A DNA stretch of 64,000 nt from Podarcis gaigeae. Taxonomy: Eukaryota. How positions within the stretch are numbered: the stretch's first letter is position 1; every line of letters begins with the position of its first letter. The notes below the pieces were generated by a model. The model was not told where the DNA came from. It searched no databases and saw nothing but the letters and a program-made list of their open reading frames with translations. A program made the translations under genes and the position numbers. The DNA lies in NCBI GenBank assembly GCA_964106915.2, contig OZ066918.1. The stretch is one strand, 5' to 3'. Positions 979 to 63,038 of the stretch are shown piece by piece.

Positions 979-1047
979 CAGTAGAAAATGGAGACCCCTG
1001 CCAGAATGGTGCCATGACCTTGCCTCCCTCCCCAGTCTTTTGGGATT

Positions 1048-1079
1048 CAACAAACAAACAAACAAACAAACAAACAAAC
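1048..1079. repeat. (AAAC)n microsatellite
   Basis: About 8 tandem AAAC units. Confidence 0.95.
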
Positions 1080-1350
1080 CTTGGACAAGCTAAAGAAAGG
1101 ATAAAGAAATTAGCACCTTTCTGAGCACACAAGAGGAAGCAATATTCTCTCTCAGTGGCAGTAGGTGGAGGATGACAGCCAGAGCCTCGTCTCTCTCCGC
1201 TTTCCTTATCATTAGCTATTAATTGCCGCCGAGGTGTGGCCAAGGGGGGTTGCCGAGGCATTAGCCGCTTCGGAGTCGGTGTCCTCGCATAACCTCCCTC
1301 TTAACCAAAAAACTAGCACTAATATGTAGCCCTCGCCTTATAAAGTCAAA

Positions 1351-1368
1351 ATGCACAATACCTTCCTG
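1351..1368 (+). CDS. TET1: Candidate alternative first coding exon of short TET1 (MHNTFL)
   Basis: aaaATG with A at -3, six codons, then a consensus donor CTG|GTGAGT in phase 0, in frame with exon 3. Inferred only; no transcript data. Confidence 0.5.
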
Positions 1369-1877
1369 GTGAGTGCGTGTGTGCGCAGCGTCCGCAGGCT
1401 CTCCCCCCCCCCCCCGGGGCTCAATTGATCCCTCCTCCTCCGTTGCTCTGGATCTCTCCTCTCTGTCTTCTCTTTCGCGTTCAGCTTTAAACCAATCAGT
1501 CAGGCAAACCAGGAGTTGGGGGGGGGCGTTTGGCGGCTTTGCTTTTCCAGTCATTAATATATATATATATAAATAACACACCTCGCTTCCGCCTAGCCCA
1601 CCCCCACCCTCCAGCTTTCCAACCCCTATTTCCACCCCACCCCACCCCTCGGCCGGATCCACGGTCGCAGGGAGTCCATGTCGCAGCTTGCGCCCGCCCC
1701 TTGTGTCCTCTTGCTCCGAGTAAAAACCCCACATAGGAGACCCTTTGTTTGGGAAGGGCTAGGCAAGGGAAGAAGCGCTTTGGAAGCTCCTGGCCTCGCT
1801 TTGCTATTGGCTGGTCCTTTTCTAGAGCCTGGTGGTTGATATTTTTTTTGTGGTGGATTTTTTTTCTTCTTTTGGGG

Positions 1878-1902
1878 GTGTGTGTGTGTGTGTGTGTGTG
1901 TG
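1878..1902. repeat. (TG)n microsatellite
   Basis: Direct observation. Confidence 0.95.
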
Positions 1903-2424
1903 TCTGTGTAATAATATTCGAGAGGCATGCCCAGCACGTCCCCAGTGTTGGCAGGCAGGGCTTGCTGTGCTGCTTTTTGCTGCCGCCGCCGCTGCTGTTC
2001 CTTTTAAAAACACCATGATAATAATACTCAAAAAGCAGCGTGAAGTAGTGCTGTACTGTGGAAGGTTCTTCAGCAGAAGGAAGCAAGATGGCTACCTTGT
2101 GGGTTTTGCTGTGAAGAATGCAGAGCCTAATTAAACCCGACTCTGAAGGGGGGGAAGGTTACTACTATTTTCCCCCCTCCTTCCTCGCTAACCCTCTTTC
2201 CCCCCGTTTTCTTTTTGTTTTGATTCCGGTGACTTCAACGCCTAAAGTCTACTCATCAGTTCCTTCTTAAGTTCTGCAGCGAGAGAGAGAGAGAGAGAAA
2301 AGCCCGTATGGTTCTGCTTTAAAGTCTTCTAATGTTACAAGGCGGGTGGGGGGGGGGAATGCTTAAAAATAAATATTTGCTTTATTCACGAAGGCTTACT
2401 TTGCAATTTGGTGTCTTTCTTTAG

Positions 2425-2475
2425 GTGCTAACTGAAAACAAAAGGCCTCAGAGGAGAAAGCAAAGAGTTCAAAAG
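2425..2475 (+). CDS. TET1: TET1 exon 3 equivalent (VLTENKRPQRRKQRVQK), 51 nt, phase 0/0
   Basis: Acceptor tttctttag|GTG and donor AAG|gtaat. The basic peptide resembles the short post-CXXC exon of mammalian TET1 (VIKENKRPQREKKPKVLK, recalled) and is in frame with the next exon. Confidence 0.88.
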
Positions 2476-4412
2476 GTAATAACGGATCATTTAATTTATT
2501 AATAATTACAGAAAAGCAAACCCCAACCTGTCATACACACTTTTTTTTTTTGGCTGTGAAATAGGCGGTAGAAGGGTGGAAATTCTAGAAAGTATTAGTT
2601 TCCTGATTTTCATATTTATGGTGAATATTAAAAGCTCATAACATTTTTGTCTTTCCCTCAGTATGATGAAGTGTGTTTTGTAGAGATTTAACTCTTTGTG
2701 CACAGAGTTGCAGGATAGAATTTTAAATTACTTGCAGTGCACTGAAAATGACTTGTGTCATCCTTGATTCTTAAAGGCTGTGGTCCTAAAGATGCTTATT
2801 ATGATGGAGTTGGTCCTACTGAATTCAGTAAGAGTTATTTACGAGTAAATGTGTTTAGAAATTGTGCTGAAAGTGACCCTTTGGTTCTTGGACGAGGGCT
2901 GTCTTCATATAGATATCAGGCTGTGTGTATGTTAACCGTGGAATGATAATATCATGTTAAATGTTGGCTGTTCTTGCATTCCCCCCTCCCAAATGATTTG
3001 CTTCTTGTTTTGTAAAATTGACATATTCAGGTAAATGTGGCCTGCAATTCGTAATTAAAAAAATACTACAGGTATGCATTTTCTTCAATAAGTGTGTGTT
3101 GGTCTGAAAATGGTTTTTAAATCGGGCGGCGTTCCATAAGTGTTTTGGTGTGGCGTGGAGCTGCTGAAGCAAAAATCGGGAGGGGAAAAAACCCTAGTGC
3201 ATATTCGGTGTTTCTTGTGCATATATAAATGGCAACCCTGTTCTCTTCAGTGAGTCAGGGAATTCCTGTACACGTGCAGAGGAAATCCCTGTTTACGATG
3301 GGGAATCCCCATCCCATAGTAGAGAATTAGGGCCCCTCCCACACAAGCAGAGTGCTGAATGTCATTGGAGCTTTCCAGAATTCTGGATCATGGCGGATGT
3401 GTTTAGTCTCAGGATTCGAAAGTGAAAATGTATTGCGCGTTTATGTTGCCATATTTGTACTGGGGTGTTTGCCTCCAACTCTGACATAGCGGCATGTTCT
3501 GTAGTGTGACTGAAGTCCTGGCAAACTTACTAACTCGCTGGTACACTATGCGTTAGCTCCTGTGACCAGGCTGGAAGGTCTGTGGATGTTGTTCTTTTGT
3601 GGTAAGAATACTTGGTATGAGTGTAGTAATAGTTAACATGTATTTTGCTGTGTGCGATAGCTTTCAGTTTATTTAGAAACTAGTCATAGGGTCCTTAAAC
3701 AAAGCAGTTGTGTATAAAGATAATTATTTTATAAAAATAAAAACCTATAGAGACTTAAAGTAGATTTTAGGAGGAAATTAAGTATCCTTAAAATCTCCAC
3801 TTTGATAGACTAGGCTGCAATCCTGTGCACACTTATCCAGGAGACCCAGTGAACCTAGTGGGGTTTGTTCCTGAGCAAATGTGCATGGGATTGTGTTATT
3901 TACTTGAAGGTGCTATGGTTGGATTTGTGTTTAGGATGCTAAAGTATACTTGAATTGCGTGTGTGGACACACTTGCATTTGAAAAAAAGTATTCATAATT
4001 TTATTTGCACTGCGCTTAAAATATTATCTTCCAAGTGTGAGCATTTTATGTCTTTTTTTATTTGGATCTGAAATACATGGTTGATTTCTATGTCTTTAGA
4101 AATAATGTCATGTTTACAATGTTGTGTGCTTGCAAATTAAATAATCACTTTGTTGGCATTTTTAATTGACAACCCAAAAATTTAGGTTGCAGTCTGATTT
4201 GGACATCAGTTCCATCAAAATCAATGGGTTGTAAATTCAAATATATAAGTTTCTTTTTGGATAATGGTTCCAATATGTAAGAAGCAATTGTATTATTATT
4301 TTTTACAATGGAGCCAACCAATCAATCTATTGGGCATAGTCTACTGGGATGTTCTTTTGCCGTTCATTTAGCTCCATTGTACTCTTGTGTGGCTCTCATT
4401 CATTTCTAGCAT

Positions 4413-18698: not shown

Positions 18699-20053
18699 TG
18701 CCCTTTGTGTACCACATTTCCATACTATCATTCTTATCACCCTGATAATAACCCATTCATAGAAAGCACCCCCAGCTAAGCACTATGTCACCTGCACAGC
18801 AGCAAACCAGTGTCCCCCAAATTTTAACTACTTTACTTCTTCAATTTTTCTTTCTGTACACCTAAAGAGCCTGGGACAAAAAGGAATTGATTGATTTTTG
18901 CCACTGGTGTGCTTATTTGTCCTAGCTAATGTTAACATATTGGGATAAAAGAATGTTCTGTGGGGTTTTTCAAACAAAAACTGATTTGGGGAAACAGACC
19001 TACCCAGATATTTCACCCTTGGTTAGGGGCATTTTACTACTCCAAGATAAATTGGAATGTAGGTTGTGGTATGAAAACCATTTATGTTAATTTTTTTAAT
19101 GGGTGAAGGTAAGTCTCTGTGTGACTCAGTATACTGGTGTTTTACCTCTTCACGTTTTATATAGCAGAAGTCAACCCCCTTTCCTTCCCTTTGCAAATAA
19201 TGTAGTTCCATACCTATGACAATATGCAGTGTGGTCCCAAAGTTGATTTTGTCTTTGTTGCTAGTCTGAAATCCAGACTTCTCTTTCCATCTCCAGAAAA
19301 AAGCACCAAAGCTTCAGAATGTACAGTATTAGCTGACCTGTCCAATTAAAAGGACTCTGGTTGATGATCTTTGTTTCCAGTAAAATTTCTACCCCATTAC
19401 ATGTGGCTGATGAAGAATTTACAGTAGTGTAATAAAACTTGAAAATGGCAAAATGCAGATTATTGTTCATTATAGACAACTGTGGATGAGTCTGGACTCC
19501 AATATTCATAATAAGATGTTTGGTAAAGGCAATATTCTGATGTTTGAATAGCTCTCAAATGTAGAATTGATAAGGTGGAATATTCCTCAACATACCTTGT
19601 AGTCCACCTCTTCCCTTTTCCTGATAATATGTACACACTGTTTCCTCAGTCACAGACCACTGAACCAACCCCAAGACACACATTCAGTTAGGCAAAAGTT
19701 AGGCTTCAGCATGCAAGTGTTACTTACAGTTACTGTATACTCTCTCTCTATATTGGGAAAAAACAAAACTTTATATAACCTGCTCCTAAACTTTTTTTCT
19801 CACATACATAATTTTTATTTCAGTGGAAATCACTGAATTGGTACCTCCACCCTTGAAAAACAATCTTAATCTCCTTTATTTGGAAGCAAGCACCTTCCTT
19901 TGGGCTGCATTCTCACACTACCGCTGCTACAGTGTTGTATTGCTGATGTTTAAATACTTTTGCCCATAAAAAGGTTAATTAGGGTAGTTCCGATGCATCT
20001 GTATATTCAGGAATAACAGCATTGGCTAAAACTATTTTTGTGTTGTTTTTCAG

Positions 20054-22661
20054 GGAGACTTAGAAAACAAACCAGTCAATGGCTGCAGACCAGAGCTCAT
20101 GGACTGTGTTGCCCACGGCCATGGCGAAAAACCCAAGGTGAAACCAAGCCATTTGCTGCCTTGGGAAAATGTACAGGCAGATGAAAAGGGAAGTATGACT
20201 GGCTTAGAAACGGAGAAGTGGGCACAGAATGAGAAGCCATCGCTTAGCGTCCATGTGAACGGTGACCTCTGTAGAGCTAGAGCAAGGAATGAGAACTCGA
20301 AACATTTTGAAAAGGATCCAAAAGCTGTTCATTCTTCCAACGTGTTAGATGACCCCAAAAAGTTGCTTGCACAAACTGTTAGAAATGGCATTAAAAGCAT
20401 TCCTTATTCACCAGCAGAATGTGACTTGTTGCTGAAAAAAACAGGTGCTGATCCGGCAAACAGCTGCCCAGAAAGCAACTTGGATGCCTCTTTGGGTTGC
20501 GCTGCTCAACTGAACAATAACAGCACTTTGACAACTGGAACATGTGGTGCTCTTCCAGAAAAGAAGGATCGCATTCTAGCGCAGCAGACAGAAAACTCTA
20601 ATGCCATTCAGGAATCTGAGAACTCACTTTTACAAACTATTTCACTTTTAGATCTTCAGGACAAGCCATCTTGCACTCCCGTGCATGACACAGATGGCTG
20701 CCTTGATGATGGTGCTTCAAATGGTGCTCCAAGCAAAGATTTGCAACCTGAAGATTTGTCACTTCAGTCAACTTTTTTATCTTTGATTAAAAACCGAAAT
20801 TTAACTGTAGAACAGGTTGTAGCTATTGAGGCATTGACACGCTTGTCGGAAGTCCCTCCAGGAGCTCCCTTACCAGCTAAACCAGAAAGAGTTCAGTGCA
20901 TAGAAGAGCAAAGTTCACATTCACTTAACAATTACAAAAAGGATAATTCATGTTTCTTGACATCATCTGCATTGAAAGTAATCAAAGGAAGTTGTCCACA
21001 GAAGGACCAGCAGCTCTTTCCTCATGCTCCTTCGCAGAGAAGAACCCTTCCTAAAAGTCCCTTGACGTCATCTGCATTGATAGCAATCAAAGGGGCTTGT
21101 CCACAGAAAGACCAGCAGCTCTTTTCTCATGGTGCTTCACAGAGAAGAATCTTTCCTAAGAGTTTGCTTTACAATGGTCAAGGTGCTATTTCTGAATTCC
21201 CCAGTAAAACCACTGGTCCATCTAGCTTATTGCGTAGGCTACATTTCTCCCCACGAGATACCAAGTCTTTATCTGCGTTAGTGTCTGGTGGAACTTCAGG
21301 TCATACTACCAAGAAACACCCTCTTTATCATAAAGCTGCCATTGGGCCATGCTCCAAAATCTCAAGTGTTGTCAAACAGCGGAGGAGCAGAGTAGACATG
21401 CTTGGAAAGTGGGAGGGGAAGGCTGTCCATGGCTCAAATTCAAAAAGTAATTCTGTATTTAGGGGAAATATTCATAGCCAGGATGAGGAAGAGGTAGCCA
21501 CCCAGTTAACTCAACTTGCAGCAATAATTGAATCAAGCAAAGCAAGCCCAGACCAGAAGACATCGCTTCTCAGTCGAATACCACCCGATATGCAACCAAA
21601 ACATAAACAGGACCAGTGCCTATTGCAGAAGAAACAATCTGTATTTGTAAGGAACAATTATAGTCCATTGTTAGTCAAGCAAAGGCAACCAACACGGAAA
21701 AATGAAAAACCAGTACCGAGGGCAAAAAGATTAAAAAAGAAGCCTCAAGTAATGCCTGACCAACAAAATCAGCTACAACAAGATTGCCATCTTAGTGAAT
21801 TACAGGACATACCGAAAAAGCCTTCTAAACTACGCAAGGTTGGTCGTAACGCGTCACAGGATTCAAAACTAACTGCTTTGGGGAAAAGATCTTCTAAAGC
21901 CAAAGTACAGAAGGCATGGAATCGGAATACTTTGTCATCACAACAAAAAGCAGCTGCATTATTTCTTCCCAAAACTCAAATAATATACCACAGGCCTTTG
22001 CCTGCTTCAACACAAGACAAAGTGAAAGACAAGTTGTTTGGCTTTGAAATGGTGCCTGAGCACATAAAAACTATGGGCTCCAATGAGGCACGGGGCACCA
22101 ATCCTCCAGGTGCTGCCCCAGATGCTCTGCACCATAGTGGCCTACTCTCCAATAGTCTTCTGACTGTCCCTCACTTCGAAGCAAAATCCTGTTTGAACCA
22201 AGGAAGTGAAAATGTACACATGTTTACAGAAAAAGACAAGAATTCTCAGGTACAGCAAACAATGAACATGGCTCAGATGCATCCTTTGCCTCAGATCTTT
22301 GGTCAAAGAGCAGATGAAATGTGCAAGGAAAACCAAGCAAAACTTGAGTGCGGTGCTATGGAACAACAAATGGGCCAGAAATTGCAAACCATGTCCATTA
22401 ACTGTAGCTTAGCCTCCCCAGGGGAAACCTTGCAGGCTCTCAGGAAAGCAGAGTGTGCAAGTGAAGTTACAGTTCCAACATCAAGAAGCTTGGAGACTGA
22501 GAACACACAGAGAACAGGGATCTTAGGGTGTTCTCCAACAAAGAATACACTCAGTAGTTTTCTTGAATCGCCTATGAAGTTCTTGGACACCCCTACAAAG
22601 AACCTAATCGATACACCTACAAAGAAAGGACAGACTGATTTTCCAAGCTGTGATTGTGTTG
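20054..22661 (+). CDS. TET1: TET1 large exon 4 (2608 nt): disordered region with Sin3-interaction helix, up to the start of the Cys-rich domain
   Basis: Acceptor tttttcag|GGA. Starts [17 protein letters not shown]; Met at 20099 corresponds to the short-isoform start. Contains [17 protein letters not shown]. Ends FPSCDCV G|gtaagt (phase 1). Confidence 0.95.
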
Positions 22662-23136
22662 GTAAGTGTAATTTGCTTCATTTTGCATGGAGTTCTGAAA
22701 GTTTTCTCACTGAGGATTCCTTTAGAATTTTTATCTTGCAAATGTTGCCTCTTGCCTGCTCTGATGAAGTGAGTCTCCAAGTCTCGACCACATAAGTGAA
22801 AAGATGACTCTATATCACTCCATATACTAATCAAGTAACTGCTTGATTACCTGAATTTACCATCTGGCTGTGACTTCCAACAGTAGTGGAAGAATTTCTA
22901 GTTACCTAAAGAGTTGATGTTATCAGTTGAAAATACTTCTTCAGCCCTGCACTTCAGGGAATTGCTGGCTTCCTGTTTCTCTGCAACAAACGGAGGAAAA
23001 TTGTTTTGTTGGTTTGTTGACAATTAGGGAATAACAACCTATATAAATAATACAGGGGAGATATCTTTATCACTGCTCCTCCTTGGTTGTCTCATTGAAT
23101 TCCAATGTGTCCTTGGTAAAAGCAGTATATTATTTA

Positions 23137-58150: not shown

Positions 58151-59219
58151 TTTGAGGGGGTGAAGCCCATTCTAGTGAAGTATTACTAGTATTAGTAAAA
58201 TATTACTCACCCAGGCAGTTTTCTACATTTCTAAATAGAGAGGAGTGTCATCTGTATTTGAAGTCACCTCAAAACATGTTGGGAGACATGGCAGAACAGT
58301 GCAAGGTCCCATAGCAATAGATGGCAATAAGTGGAACTGTACCTCTCTAGCACCATCTTCTTTCCAAACTCTGACCCATCCAGCCTGTCCAGGACATCAA
58401 AAGCCAATGCAAAGTTCAGAAGAATCAACAGGATTATTGCATAGTACGCCACTCTTTAAATATTTTAATTTAAATTGCTTTTTAGCTTTGGAAATATAAG
58501 ACAGGATATGGTTTCACTGTTGGAAGTTTGTGATTAACAATGTTCTCTTCTGTCTTAATTGCTTAATTAATTTTCACACTTGCACTATTCTATTGCACAG
58601 AAACTAAACACAATTGATCAGTTATTTTGGATTATTTTAGGGGAGGAAACCACAAATTGAAACCTTGTTGATTCCCTAAGGGTGACTTCTTTGACAGAGG
58701 AACCAGCTGCTTGTCCCGAAAAGCTGTACTATTAGGCTTTGTGGCATTTATATTGGCTGAGATTTTTTTCATCTGGTACAGCTCCTCTGCCGTTAAATAT
58801 CTGGCAAAAATAAGCACATTTCGCAACTAATGCTTGTTTTGGGAAAAGCATATGTGTCTCTTGTAGCTAAGTGCTTTCAAAATAAAACCGTATTCCTGTT
58901 GCTGATACAGTAATTAATATTGTGGCAGAAATCAGTGTGGTTTGTTCTTTTGTTGTCGTCTTGTGGCGTTTAGTTCTGTTTATTTAGTCCACAGAACGCT
59001 CAACACTGGATAACCCACCAGCTTTCATTTAAAGTGACATTTCTAACTGTACCTGAAATAATTAAACTACAGTATTGGCGGTTGGAGAGAAAATGTGAAG
59101 TATTCCCGTGGCGTGACACTGCGCATTTGAGCACTGGAAATTTATAAGATTGGTCCAAACATATAAATATTAAAGCAGTAACATTTCGTTTTCTATTTTG
59201 GGCTCGTGGTTTTTCAACG

Positions 59220-60400
59220 CTTGGGGTGCATTCTGAGCTTCAGGTAGGCAGCGAGCGTCAGGAAGCGTTTCTGTTTGCCTCATGGCAGCGCAGAATCTGA
59301 GGCGCTTCTTTAGGCCCGGACCTTTCAACCTCGACATTCCCTCAAGGTGCCTACTCTACAGTAAGATGGCGCTGCTGTTATGACCCGCCAAGCAAAGTGG
59401 CGACGGAATACGACGTAATGCAAATCGAATGACGGCTTTCCTCATAGGATTCTTCGCTTCTCGATCGTTAGGGGAGGGGGGCTTCCCTTGACGCATGCGC
59501 GCCGTTACTTCCCTTCCTTGTTTTGGAGACGGCGACCCCATCTTCCCGGAGCACGTGTACGAGGGAGGGGCGGGGAAATCTCACTTCGAGACGTCACCGA
59601 GGTGCGCGGCGCCCGAGTGAATCGCCCCCTCCAACCCGTCCTCGCTCGCGCTCCACTTCGACGCATGCGCCGTGCCTCGATTATCCGTGTGCGCGGGGTG
59701 TCGGAGGGGGTGGGGAATGTGCCGGAGGAGTTTGAAATGGCCCCTGTGAGTCCTCATTCGGCCCGCGCCAGGTAAAGGGTCGTCGGGGTTGAGGCGCGTC
59801 AAAGGCGCCGAGGCCGGGTTGGCCGTTTCAGAAGTGACGAGCCTTGAGGTTTCCGACAGCGGCCCTTGGGCGGGCTGGGCAATGCGAGAGAGGGAGGCTC
59901 TTCTCCCGGGCGGCAGGCAGGCCTCTGCCCCTCATTGTTGTTGCAGGAGGAGGAGGAGGCGCGTCTCCCGCTCTGCTTTCTCCTCGGGTCCCTGTCCCTC
60001 CACCTGAGGAGGAAGAGCGAGCGAGCGAGCTGGCTGGCAGTTTCGCCCTCAAAGGCCTCTTGTCTGTGTCTCCGCCCGCCCTCCATCCACCTCTTCTCGC
60101 CCCCCACCCCGCGTGCCTCGCATGCATGGGGAGCGCGAGAGCCACCCAATAGTTACTTCTTTGTTTCACTCCGTGAATTTCCTCCACTCGCATTCTCTCG
60201 TTCCTTATTTGTAGGCCTTGTTTGTGTCGGTCCCCCCCCCCCCAACGTATCCCATTAAATACAATATATCTTCCATCCTGCCGGTGAGGTTCACGCTGGA
60301 CAATTGGACGTATGATTGCTAAGAAGCGAGTCGGACTGAGCTCAGTTAAGCTGGCTGTCAGGTGCTCGCGACCTCAGTCTGCCTACGTGCAGGTTTCTAG
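59220..60400 (+). promoter_or_regulatory. CCAR1: CCAR1 CpG-island promoter
   Basis: Dense CpG. YY1 AAGATGGCG 59363-71, octamer ATGCAAAT 59418-25, NRF1-like CGCATGCGC at 59492 and 59662, E-box 59552-57, GC box 59567-75, TTTGAA 59731-36. Confidence 0.88.
59700..59771 (+). other. CCAR1: CCAR1 non-coding exon 1 (5' end approximate)
   Basis: Donor CAG|gtaaag at 59771/59772 inside the CpG island. The gtttgaaatggc segment resembles mammalian CCAR1 exon 1 (recalled). Confidence 0.6.
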
Positions 60401-61081: not shown

Positions 61082-61154
61082 ATGGCTCAGTTTGGAGGAC
61101 AGAAGAATCCCCCTTGGGCTACCCAGTTTACAGCCACTGCAGTATCTCAGCCAG
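61082..61154 (+). CDS. CCAR1: CCAR1 first coding exon (exon spans 61034-61154): MAQFGGQKNPPWATQFTATAVSQP
   Basis: Kozak gccATGg, recognisable CCAR1 N-terminus, donor CAG|gtcagc (phase 1). TET1-CCAR1 synteny is known in mammals. Confidence 0.95.
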
Positions 61155-63038
61155 GTCAGCGTTTATATTTCTTTTTAACCAGTAACTACTGCCTTAGCTT
61201 CAATCTGACATACTTCAAGGTTTCATACTTTTTGTCAGAGGAAACCAAAATAAAATAAATAGTTCAAAGGGTTTTAATTGATAAATTGGATTGATTAAAA
61301 TGCTTTGTCCAGCCAACAAGGTGATCCTGTTTAATTAGCAGAACTATTTAAAACAATTTTTTTAAATAAGTTCATTAAAAATGCATGCCATCAAACACCT
61401 TAAATGAATAATTTATTCTGATGTGACAGATGAGGAATGCTTCTTCTAAGATTTTGCCACACACATATGCATTATCATAAAGATGGTGTGCTTTTTTCTT
61501 TAGTAGTATTTATTTTTCATATGCATATATATATGTGGATTTAATAATTTTATCTAGGTGACATCCCTAAAACTCAACAATTCTTAAATGTAGCATTGTG
61601 TTTATATGAAAAGGGCAGGAAATTTGCTTTTAATACATCATGCTTTGAATACATATTGGTGCCCCTGTTATACAGAGACTGGATTTAGCTTGAAATAGTA
61701 AGTAGCATATTTTGTTAGTTGTTGAGCCAACTATGCTTTGCACATTCAAACAAGTTATTAAAACAGGAATGCTACATTTCTTCAGAAGCATGGTTTTCTT
61801 CCTTGTTCCCAAGGTGGGTTTTTTTTGCTGCTTAAAAGGGAAGAACCTGATAATTTTTACAGACTTGGGCCTTCAGCTGGTATTTTTCCAACTCTGTTTT
61901 CAAAGTTTCTGTAAGTGTTTAAGAGTTTGGAGCATGAAGTTCAAGGCTAAGAATGCTTAGCTGAACATATCAGAATTTGTCTAATATATGGTCACTTTAC
62001 AAATAATATGTTGCTTTCTCTTGGTGCCCTTAGGTAAAATGGAAATAAAATTGAATGAGGTCTAAATTACAGAAGCTTGAAGGACCAGTAAAATTTGAGA
62101 ATGAGCAGTTTTAACTGTGAGGCCTGAAATGAAATGAAATTGTTAACTGCATAATTATTTCTGGGCTTTCCCCTCGAAGCATGTGATCATGATGAGGCCT
62201 AGATGCTGATACTAAGCCCAAATAATATACCATGTTATTTACCATGTTATAGTTTCTCTTCTTCCCTCTCCCCTGCTGCATCTATTAGCTGGCAATAGCA
62301 GGTGCTTGCATACTCTTATGGTGCATCAGTTTTCAGCTCCATTTTTATTCTACATATACTTTGTAACAATTGTTTGAATAAATGCAGAATGATTTATATC
62401 ATATACTGCTTTGTTAATTGTTAAGTAGCACATTATATCTTTAAATGGTTAAGTTACAGTTTGATACATCAGCCAGTATTGCATTTATTTTCCTCAAAAT
62501 GTTTCTTCCTTGGCTTCAAAAGATCCAGAATTCATCTATATTTAGCATCAGATCATTAAGTCTGCAATGTGGTTTGAAAATGGCCTGTGATCTGGCACAC
62601 CAAGAAGTCTTGGCATAAAGCATACTCCATCCTTAATTTCCTATAACTGAATATACCTATTAGCTTTAAGGCTAGGTTTTTATTATTGCTCTCAGTTTTA
62701 TGTTCCAAGTGAAGAGTTGCTGAAGACTCCATTGCTTTGTTGCTTTGGATCTATCCTGCCAAGTGTGTGTTAAGCCACATGTAGTAAACATGAGCTATAA
62801 TATTCTTTGGCTCTAAACTAAAGTAAAGTTGAACCTTTTCTGCATTTGAACAGCAGCTCCTATATAAAAAGTGCATGTGCTGTATATTGGGGTGCAAGGA
62901 AGAGCCATTTCCCCACAAGCTTTGACTTACAGGAGGAATTCCTTAGTGCTGTTAAACCCCATGTTTGACCATGATGAGACTGTACTACCCACCCACCCCA
63001 AACTAAGATGTCCTAATGCTTAAATCCTACATTTTCAG

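Follow-up and report, generated by a model that had tools for sequence, protein, structure and literature searches.

The TET1, TET2 and TET3 genes stem from the vertebrate genome duplications. The locus analyzed here raises the question of whether a short element inside a lizard TET1 intron and the main first exon of mammalian TET2 go back to one internal promoter of an ancestral TET gene. This had been proposed in an earlier note made from the sequence without database searches, and we followed it up in the same window, i.e. the whole stretch of 64,000 nt from the wall lizard Podarcis gaigeae (contig OZ066918.1).

The gene in this window is wall-lizard TET1. The open reading frame (ORF) of its big exon (20030-22795) is 98% identical to Podarcis raffonei TET1, and nearly all proteins among the best 120 of 306 matches to it are named TET or TET1. 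P. muralis TET1 aligned by tblastn in 10 coding blocks from 2425 to 45600, and the last TET1 exon in the window carries the Tet_JBP domain. The first of these blocks, at 2425-2475 on the plus strand, is exon 3 (51 nt). In full-length proteins, this small exon comes after the CXXC exon. Its 5' neighbour is either the CXXC exon, which lies upstream of the window and whose end is joined to 2425 in RNA, or an alternative first exon, and its 3' neighbour is exon 4 (20054-22660, plus strand); the joints show loose ends in RNA. Since exon 3 lies at 2425-2475 and the CXXC exon upstream of the window, the element is placed in intron 2, about 350 nt 5' of exon 3. The Met at 20099 in exon 4 is the predicted start of a CXXC-less protein, and RefSeq models from other reptiles (P0010, P0012, P0017, P0028) begin at the equivalent Met, without CXXC. 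In several bird TET1 models (P0030, P0045, P0046, P0078, P0079, P0082, P0083, P0087, P0089 and others), the part ahead of exon 4 is about 17 residues shorter and does not contain the exon-3 peptide, so that some full-length transcripts may skip exon 3. A 39-nt stretch at 2820-2858 attracts low-identity reads and contigs with differing flanks and is probably a piece of an interspersed repeat. Near the other end of the window, a CpG-rich island (59200-60400) with a more canonical YY1 motif at 59363 lies close to a coding exon at 61083-61155, which we take to be the start of CCAR1, the usual neighbour of TET1.

Four of 24 listed sequencing runs (X15, X21, X23 and X19) were mapped to the window; 17 of the 24 contain at least half of the words sampled from 1700-2500, and run rows with a share of 0.04 were not counted as evidence. 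Run X15 consists of contigs of a related organism and is guessed to be RNA. Its contigs at 1703-1864 and 1926-2271 outline a transcribed alternative first-exon region at 1700-2305 (plus strand), the 5' end of which is approximate. Run X21 contributed 19 reads with a depth starting near 1690 (bin 1638-1698), and depth was zero over 1150-1637 in all four runs. No reads fell into the promoter region in X23 (two poor reads elsewhere) or X19 (exon 3 only). One 411-nt X15 contig combines 1926-2271 with 2425-2454, the 32 letters in between matching the skipped GA repeat. These pieces imply a splice from the GT at 2306 (donor 2306-2307, plus strand) across a 119-nt intron to exon 3; the splice-joint table holds no such joint. 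Other X15 contigs join exon 3 to the end of the CXXC exon and to exon 4. Use of two further candidate donors, at 2099 and 2158, was not seen in the lizard RNA of the four mapped runs.

The CpG observed/expected ratio is 0.54-0.79 in 300-nt windows starting at 1051-1651, compared with 0.24-0.28 in those starting at 2401-2701. TG, GCC and GA repeats (1865-1916, 1981 and 2272-2307) lie inside the transcribed first-exon region, and the related organism carries a GCC insertion at 1981. The element had been described as part of an internal TET1 promoter: it is indeed internal, within intron 2, but it sits inside the transcribed leader and not upstream of it.

It is practically certain that the region of the element is the lizard counterpart, by orthology, of the mammalian TET1ALT/Tet1s first exon. 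Six oligonucleotides published for human or mouse short TET1 match 1745-2130, in order. The human DB11 primer (PMC5737541) has a single match at 2080-2100 with two mismatches (19/21; 1 of 100 shuffles matched), and a mouse primer from the same paper has a single match at 2109-2130 with three mismatches (19/22; 0 of 100 shuffles). By eye, the human TET1-ALT gRNA 3 matches an upstream block at 1745-1764 (18/20, plus strand) and gRNA 2 loosely matches about 2052-2071, and one of the mouse Tet1S ChIP primers (PMC7842754) fits 2077-2094 (16/18), while the 3' end of the forward primer fits the block around the ATG at 2015 (2008-2021, plus strand, 14/14). The human DB15 primer and gRNA 1 showed no clear match in the window by eye. 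PMC5737541 puts the human alternative start within the last 1 kb ahead of exon 3 and describes two first exons, with spliced products of 104 and 107 bp. The predicted GT donor at 2158-2159 (plus strand) is the equivalent of the human TET1ALT first-exon donor, being 78 nt away from 2080 compared with the 79-82 nt implied by the human amplicons. In addition, the RefSeq model P0013 of the gecko Heteronotia and the ORF of P0154, a protein probably from a rodent, read through the same bases. The core of the element is conserved among TET1 orthologues of human, mouse and gecko, a point on which the earlier note had let its proposal hang.

PMC5737541 (2017) casts the TET1ALT promoter as a recent mammalian feature, lists YY1 among the factors bound there and states, based on Multiz alignments that showed no conservation beyond mammals, that zebrafish, lizard and chicken have no conserved counterparts of the alternative exons. 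This statement does not hold for lizards: promoter and first exon are present in a lacertid and a gecko.

The match to human TET2 exon 1 that the earlier note had put forward, and on which the proposal likewise hung, was borne out against published TET2 primers. Here, the TET2 side consists of primers tiled with overlaps of 1 and 3 bases, not of TET2 genomic sequence, and the adjacency of the two human primers with the 1-base overlap was deduced through the mouse primer. The mouse Tet2 forward primer (PMC9856181 Table 2) has one match in the window, at 2070-2091, with two mismatches that are both 5'-terminal (0 of 100 shuffles matched), and is identical over 2072-2091 (20/20). By eye, the human TET2 Pro2 reverse primer (PMC6566030 Table 1) is identical over 2072-2087 (16/16). 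For a human TET2 forward primer (PMC9271703), the best placement in the window on either strand is an ungapped alignment starting at 2087, with 18/24 and 19/28 identical bases. Together, the Pro2 primer (16/16) and the TET2-F primer (17/23) give 33/39 ungapped identities over 2072-2110 (plus strand), the block shared by lizard TET1 and mammalian TET2 exon 1b at Pro2. On the 5' side, the similarity ends at 2072, where the four further human bases (4/4) and both mouse bases (2/2) differ, and the shared block comprises only about 40 nt.

Human TET2 resembles lizard TET1 in its layout. As reported in PMC6566030, Pro2 is the dominant human TET2 promoter, its reverse primer ends at +1024, the exon-1b RT primer starts from +1082, 58 nt past the core G at +1024, and the first coding exon follows about 87 kb downstream. 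The primer tiling is consistent with the 57 nt that separate +1024 from +1082. ACCCGACT occurs in two human TET2 primers; judged by a 3-base primer overlap, it lies 32 nt after the ATG in human TET2 and 47 nt after it in the lizard, i.e. about 15 nt closer to the core in TET2. Among the species compared, the TET1 copy of the block is present in lizard, gecko, mouse and human and the TET2 copy in human and mouse. For TET3, the few published primers examined (including the primer tables of PMC3653909) gave no match, which is no evidence of absence. A literature search with strings from the window returned the mouse Tet2 primer and an unrelated plant paper; primer matches in PMC10670923, PMC13578697 and PMC10193937 were unrelated and dropped.

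Within the window, the 25-nt element AGCAGAAGGAAGCAAGATGGCTACC was confirmed at 2072-2096, and the 8-mer ACCCGACT at 2135-2142 (plus strand), directly 3' of the stop of a 39-codon ORF described below. The YY1 core CAAGATGGC at 2084-2092 (plus strand) contains the first 9 of 12 bases of the YY1 consensus as given in the bioRxiv preprint 10.1101/2024.07.09.602649. It is kept in lizard, human and mouse TET1 as well as across the mouse and human TET2 primers, and is the one invariant part of all TET1 and TET2 copies compared. The 8-codon upstream ORF (uORF) that had been described starting from the ATG in this core is present in the lizard (2088-2114, plus strand; stop at 2112-2114), but neither its length nor its peptide is conserved: the human TET2 primer has a stop at codon 5 of this frame, and the human TET1 primer has a changed codon 4. 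Since the ATG opens 8 codons in the lizard but 4 in human TET2, the frame of ATG 2088 encodes no conserved peptide, and both human primer sequences rule out the 8-codon peptide as a conserved product. A similar picture emerged for the GGAAG at 2079-2083 (plus strand), which we take to be ETS-like, following the earlier label. It is present in lizard TET1 and mammalian TET2, but its core is altered in human TET1 (at 2080) and in mouse TET1 (at 2080 and 2082, by eye). This rules out an ETS site as a feature of every copy; as human and mouse TET1 carry a changed GGAA, what all copies have in common is limited to the YY1 core and the right flank.

An RNA structure at the element was rejected based on a z-score of -0.36 for 2040-2160, and no Rfam match was found in 1000-3200 or in the whole window. 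A metagenome scan for the motif yielded 12 loci; the flanks were unlike the window in 12/12, and the loci were therefore treated as chance matches. Seven of them (L001, L002, L004, L006, L008, L010 and L012) are near-identical copies of one unrelated family with a motif variant by chance. Scans of viral and prokaryote genomes for the TET1 core gave no match (0 in each), and none of these three scans turned up a vertebrate locus.

Judging from the sequence comparison, the match between TET1 and TET2 is far beyond chance and reaches well past the 9-nt YY1 core. The binomial probability of 33/39 ungapped identities is 2e-14 to 2e-12, and removal of the YY1 core leaves 24/30 (8e-10 to 2e-8). For the 12 bases upstream of the core alone, first-order composition models gave p ~1e-7; if GGAAG is granted along with the core, 7 further identical bases remain (p 3e-5). 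The right flank alone reaches 11/17, a score attained by 0.08% of window positions, with the 17-base length chosen after the alignment had been seen; over a greater length it is weaker (12/21, p 0.002-0.009). Some shared 8-mer is expected by chance with p ~0.04-0.06, which makes ACCCGACT alone weak to marginal. As a small control, AAGATGGC occurs five times in the window, including once at 59363 in the CpG island, and the four sites outside the element share neither flank.

The leader contains ATGs at 1927, 2015, 2088 and 2118. From the second of these runs a 39-codon upstream ORF (P0121; 2015-2134, plus strand), absent from the earlier note, which crosses the element in another frame. The gecko model P0013 starts with its first 28 residues (21/28 identical; 8/8 across the motif), joined in frame to exon 3. 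Splicing from the GT at 2099-2100 (plus strand), the equivalent of the donor of the gecko model, would likewise connect the 2015 ORF to exon 3 in a continuous frame. P0154, an unnamed protein of 38 aa, has the same start and stop as the lizard ORF and is identical at 24/39 positions, including 15 of the last 16 residues; it fits the mouse primers and is therefore probably from a rodent. The ORF could possibly be a conserved uORF or an alternative N-terminus of short TET1, and its frame is kept within TET1 and may add translational control. The ATG at 2118-2120 lies one codon past the stop of the 8-codon uORF; it also occurs in the mouse primer and is out of frame with exon 3 via the donors at 2158 and 2306.

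Common descent of the TET1-short and TET2 exon 1b blocks is the best reading on sequence grounds, and we consider it quite probable; it accounts for the match as well as for where the match lies, namely in first exons of CXXC-less transcripts from two paralogous genes. The whole explanation, namely that this stretch of the short-TET1 first exon and a likely paralogous TET2 copy both derive from one internal promoter of an ancestral TET gene and work by the mechanism outlined below, is given a probability of about 0.72. The proposal of a single internal promoter as the ancestor of both the main TET2 promoter and that in TET1 intron 2 is supported by the 33/39 match and by the core being kept in TET1 orthologues. 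As to the history, a scenario that we favour to some degree is that the single pre-vertebrate TET gene had an internal YY1-driven promoter behind the CXXC exon, which TET1 kept as the TET1s promoter and TET2 kept as its main promoter after the CXXC4 inversion. A block of this promoter would have remained almost unchanged to the letter in both paralogues, and TET2 would then be the ancestral short isoform turned gene, sharing one regulatory switch with TET1s. Marginally less firmly, we lean towards YY1 as the main constraint on the element. The block may date from before the vertebrate genome duplications and may have had a role in the survival of TET2 after the inversion. Against the explanation as a whole, mammalian TET1 has lost the GGAA, which makes part of the block dispensable there, and the RNA support is thin.

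With regard to the mechanism, RNA coverage suggests that transcription starts inside intron 2, at an approximate position. YY1 likely binds the CAAGATGGC core downstream of this start and would support initiation there. The leader, as judged from one contig, would be spliced to exon 3 and then to exon 4, with the protein predicted to begin at Met 20099, and the upstream ATGs are predicted to dampen translation. In TET2, the inversion would have cut off the CXXC exon and left the internal promoter as the main one. The TET literature, including PMC6566030, refers to the inversion from which CXXC4 arose. In the accessible parts of two preprints, YY1 is reported to bind the Tet2 promoter and to support its H3K4me3 (bioRxiv 10.64898/2026.01.27.701530) and to activate best at or downstream of the start site (bioRxiv 10.1101/2024.07.09.602649). 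The literature available to our search, with most subscription papers outside it, contained no claim of homology between TET2 Pro2 and the TET1 intron-2 promoter, and for YY1 it contained promoter-level binding in mammals and no mapping to the CAAGATGGC core. The comparison of three upstream TET1 promoters in the available text of PMC6566030, which reports no homology to TET2 promoters, did not include the intron-2 promoter.

The main rival to common descent is convergence. The TET1 intron-2 and TET2 promoters could have arisen separately and each gained a composite ETS-YY1 site, or the site of a longer zinc-finger factor, so that they share a factor and not an ancestor. As a downstream promoter motif, the YY1 core is common, AAGATGGC is present in five copies in the window, YY1 has been reported at both promoters, the shared block is short with its sharp end at 2072, and the Multiz alignments of PMC5737541, as far as that text goes, show no conservation outside mammals. 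However, convergence must account for 12 identical bases upstream of the core, or for 7 if GGAAG is granted, at the probabilities given above, and for a right flank that matches as well (p ~1e-3). The other four AAGATGGC sites lack shared flanks, and both copies sit in first exons of CXXC-less transcripts of paralogous genes. We therefore consider separate origins unlikely. Somewhat less probable still is a purely translational constraint, in which the 2015 ORF (or its fusion to exon 3 via the GT at 2099) and the strong-context ATG at 2088 were selected for tuning the output of short TET1, with YY1 being incidental. The start and stop kept between lizard and P0154, the agreement of their last residues (15/16) and the use of the 2015 ORF as N-terminus in the gecko RefSeq model speak for it, and three of six known base changes are synonymous in the 2015 frame and non-synonymous in that of ATG 2088 (by eye). 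This synonymous excess is, however, not significant (p 0.24, computed for 3/7), P0154 shows poor conservation in its N-terminal half, which has the look of a frame shift, and an N-terminus of this kind was found in one of the best 120 of 306 proteins (P0013), directed protein searches yielding only P0013 and P0154 and no other long protein. Such a constraint also cannot explain the TET2 match, because the differences in the human TET2 forward primer are mostly non-synonymous in the 2015 frame (by eye).

That the resemblance is an artefact or a late transfer, with mis-assembly, contamination or gene conversion having brought TET2 sequence into the lizard TET1 intron, is largely refuted and very improbable. 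It would fit the observation that lizard TET1 is closer to mammalian TET2 (20/20 over 2072-2091) than to mouse TET1 (16/18 over 2077-2094). Against it, 14 probable DNA runs with four organism labels from four studies contain 77-100% of the words sampled from 1700-2500, the residues of the gecko model across the block agree with those of the lizard, and the flanks on both sides match mammalian TET1 and not TET2. Overall, common descent from an internal TET promoter remains our preferred reading: we regard the conserved element as real and as a deeper member of the known TET1s promoter, and the main first exon of TET2 as the site of a likely paralogous copy.

In adults, the short isoform is the main form of TET1, and its level is raised in cancers; TET2 is a major tumour suppressor in blood. 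If the two blocks are indeed one ancient element, the short isoform would be older than the split of TET1 and TET2, and the CXXC4 inversion would have required no new promoter, TET2 expression being kept after the loss of its front end. The comparison also names a 40-nt target in the TET2 leader for YY1 control, recently reported at the promoter level, and for non-coding variants.

Among known systems, the mammalian TET1ALT/Tet1s promoter resembles the lizard one in its position just before exon 3, in the matches of its first-exon primers, in a CXXC-less product from an exon-4 Met (predicted in the lizard) and in the YY1 reported there in mammals (PMC5737541, PMC7842754), but it was described as conserved only among placental mammals and not in lizard, chicken or zebrafish. 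The lizard differs in keeping the GGAA that was lost in mammals and in an RNA-supported donor further downstream (2306). Human TET2 Pro2 with exon 1b, as far as PMC6566030 is available, shares the block of about 40 nt, the YY1 core, an upstream ATG, the 8-mer and a first exon that is non-coding (putatively so in the lizard), and we count as a further likeness that it is broadly expressed and the most conserved TET2 promoter between human and mouse; it belongs to a different gene, and its uORF has 4 codons instead of 8. In Drosophila, the accessible part of PMC5764297 likewise describes one Tet gene with two promoters, giving a long form (Tet-L) and a form without CXXC (Tet-S) that is likened to TET2, but it makes no claim of promoter sequence homology. 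By analogy, this two-promoter architecture fits an old origin, without being sequence evidence.

In TISU, a YY1 element overlaps a main start codon that is situated a few bases from the cap. The TET element is similar to TISU and to downstream YY1 elements in having a sense-strand YY1 core that contains a strong-context ATG downstream of the start. Unlike TISU, it carries only the first 9 of the 12 consensus bases, its ATG at 2088 opens a short uORF that stops after 8 codons and not the main ORF, and RNA reaches upstream to at least 1926. Duplicated conserved non-coding elements, reportedly kept beside paralogues of the vertebrate genome duplications (McEwen et al. 2006), are a further parallel, each being a short block common to paralogous loci and conserved within each of them. 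Those are mostly longer distal enhancers, whereas the TET block is short, lies in a transcribed first exon and is overlapped by a 39-codon ORF kept in the gecko and probably in a rodent.
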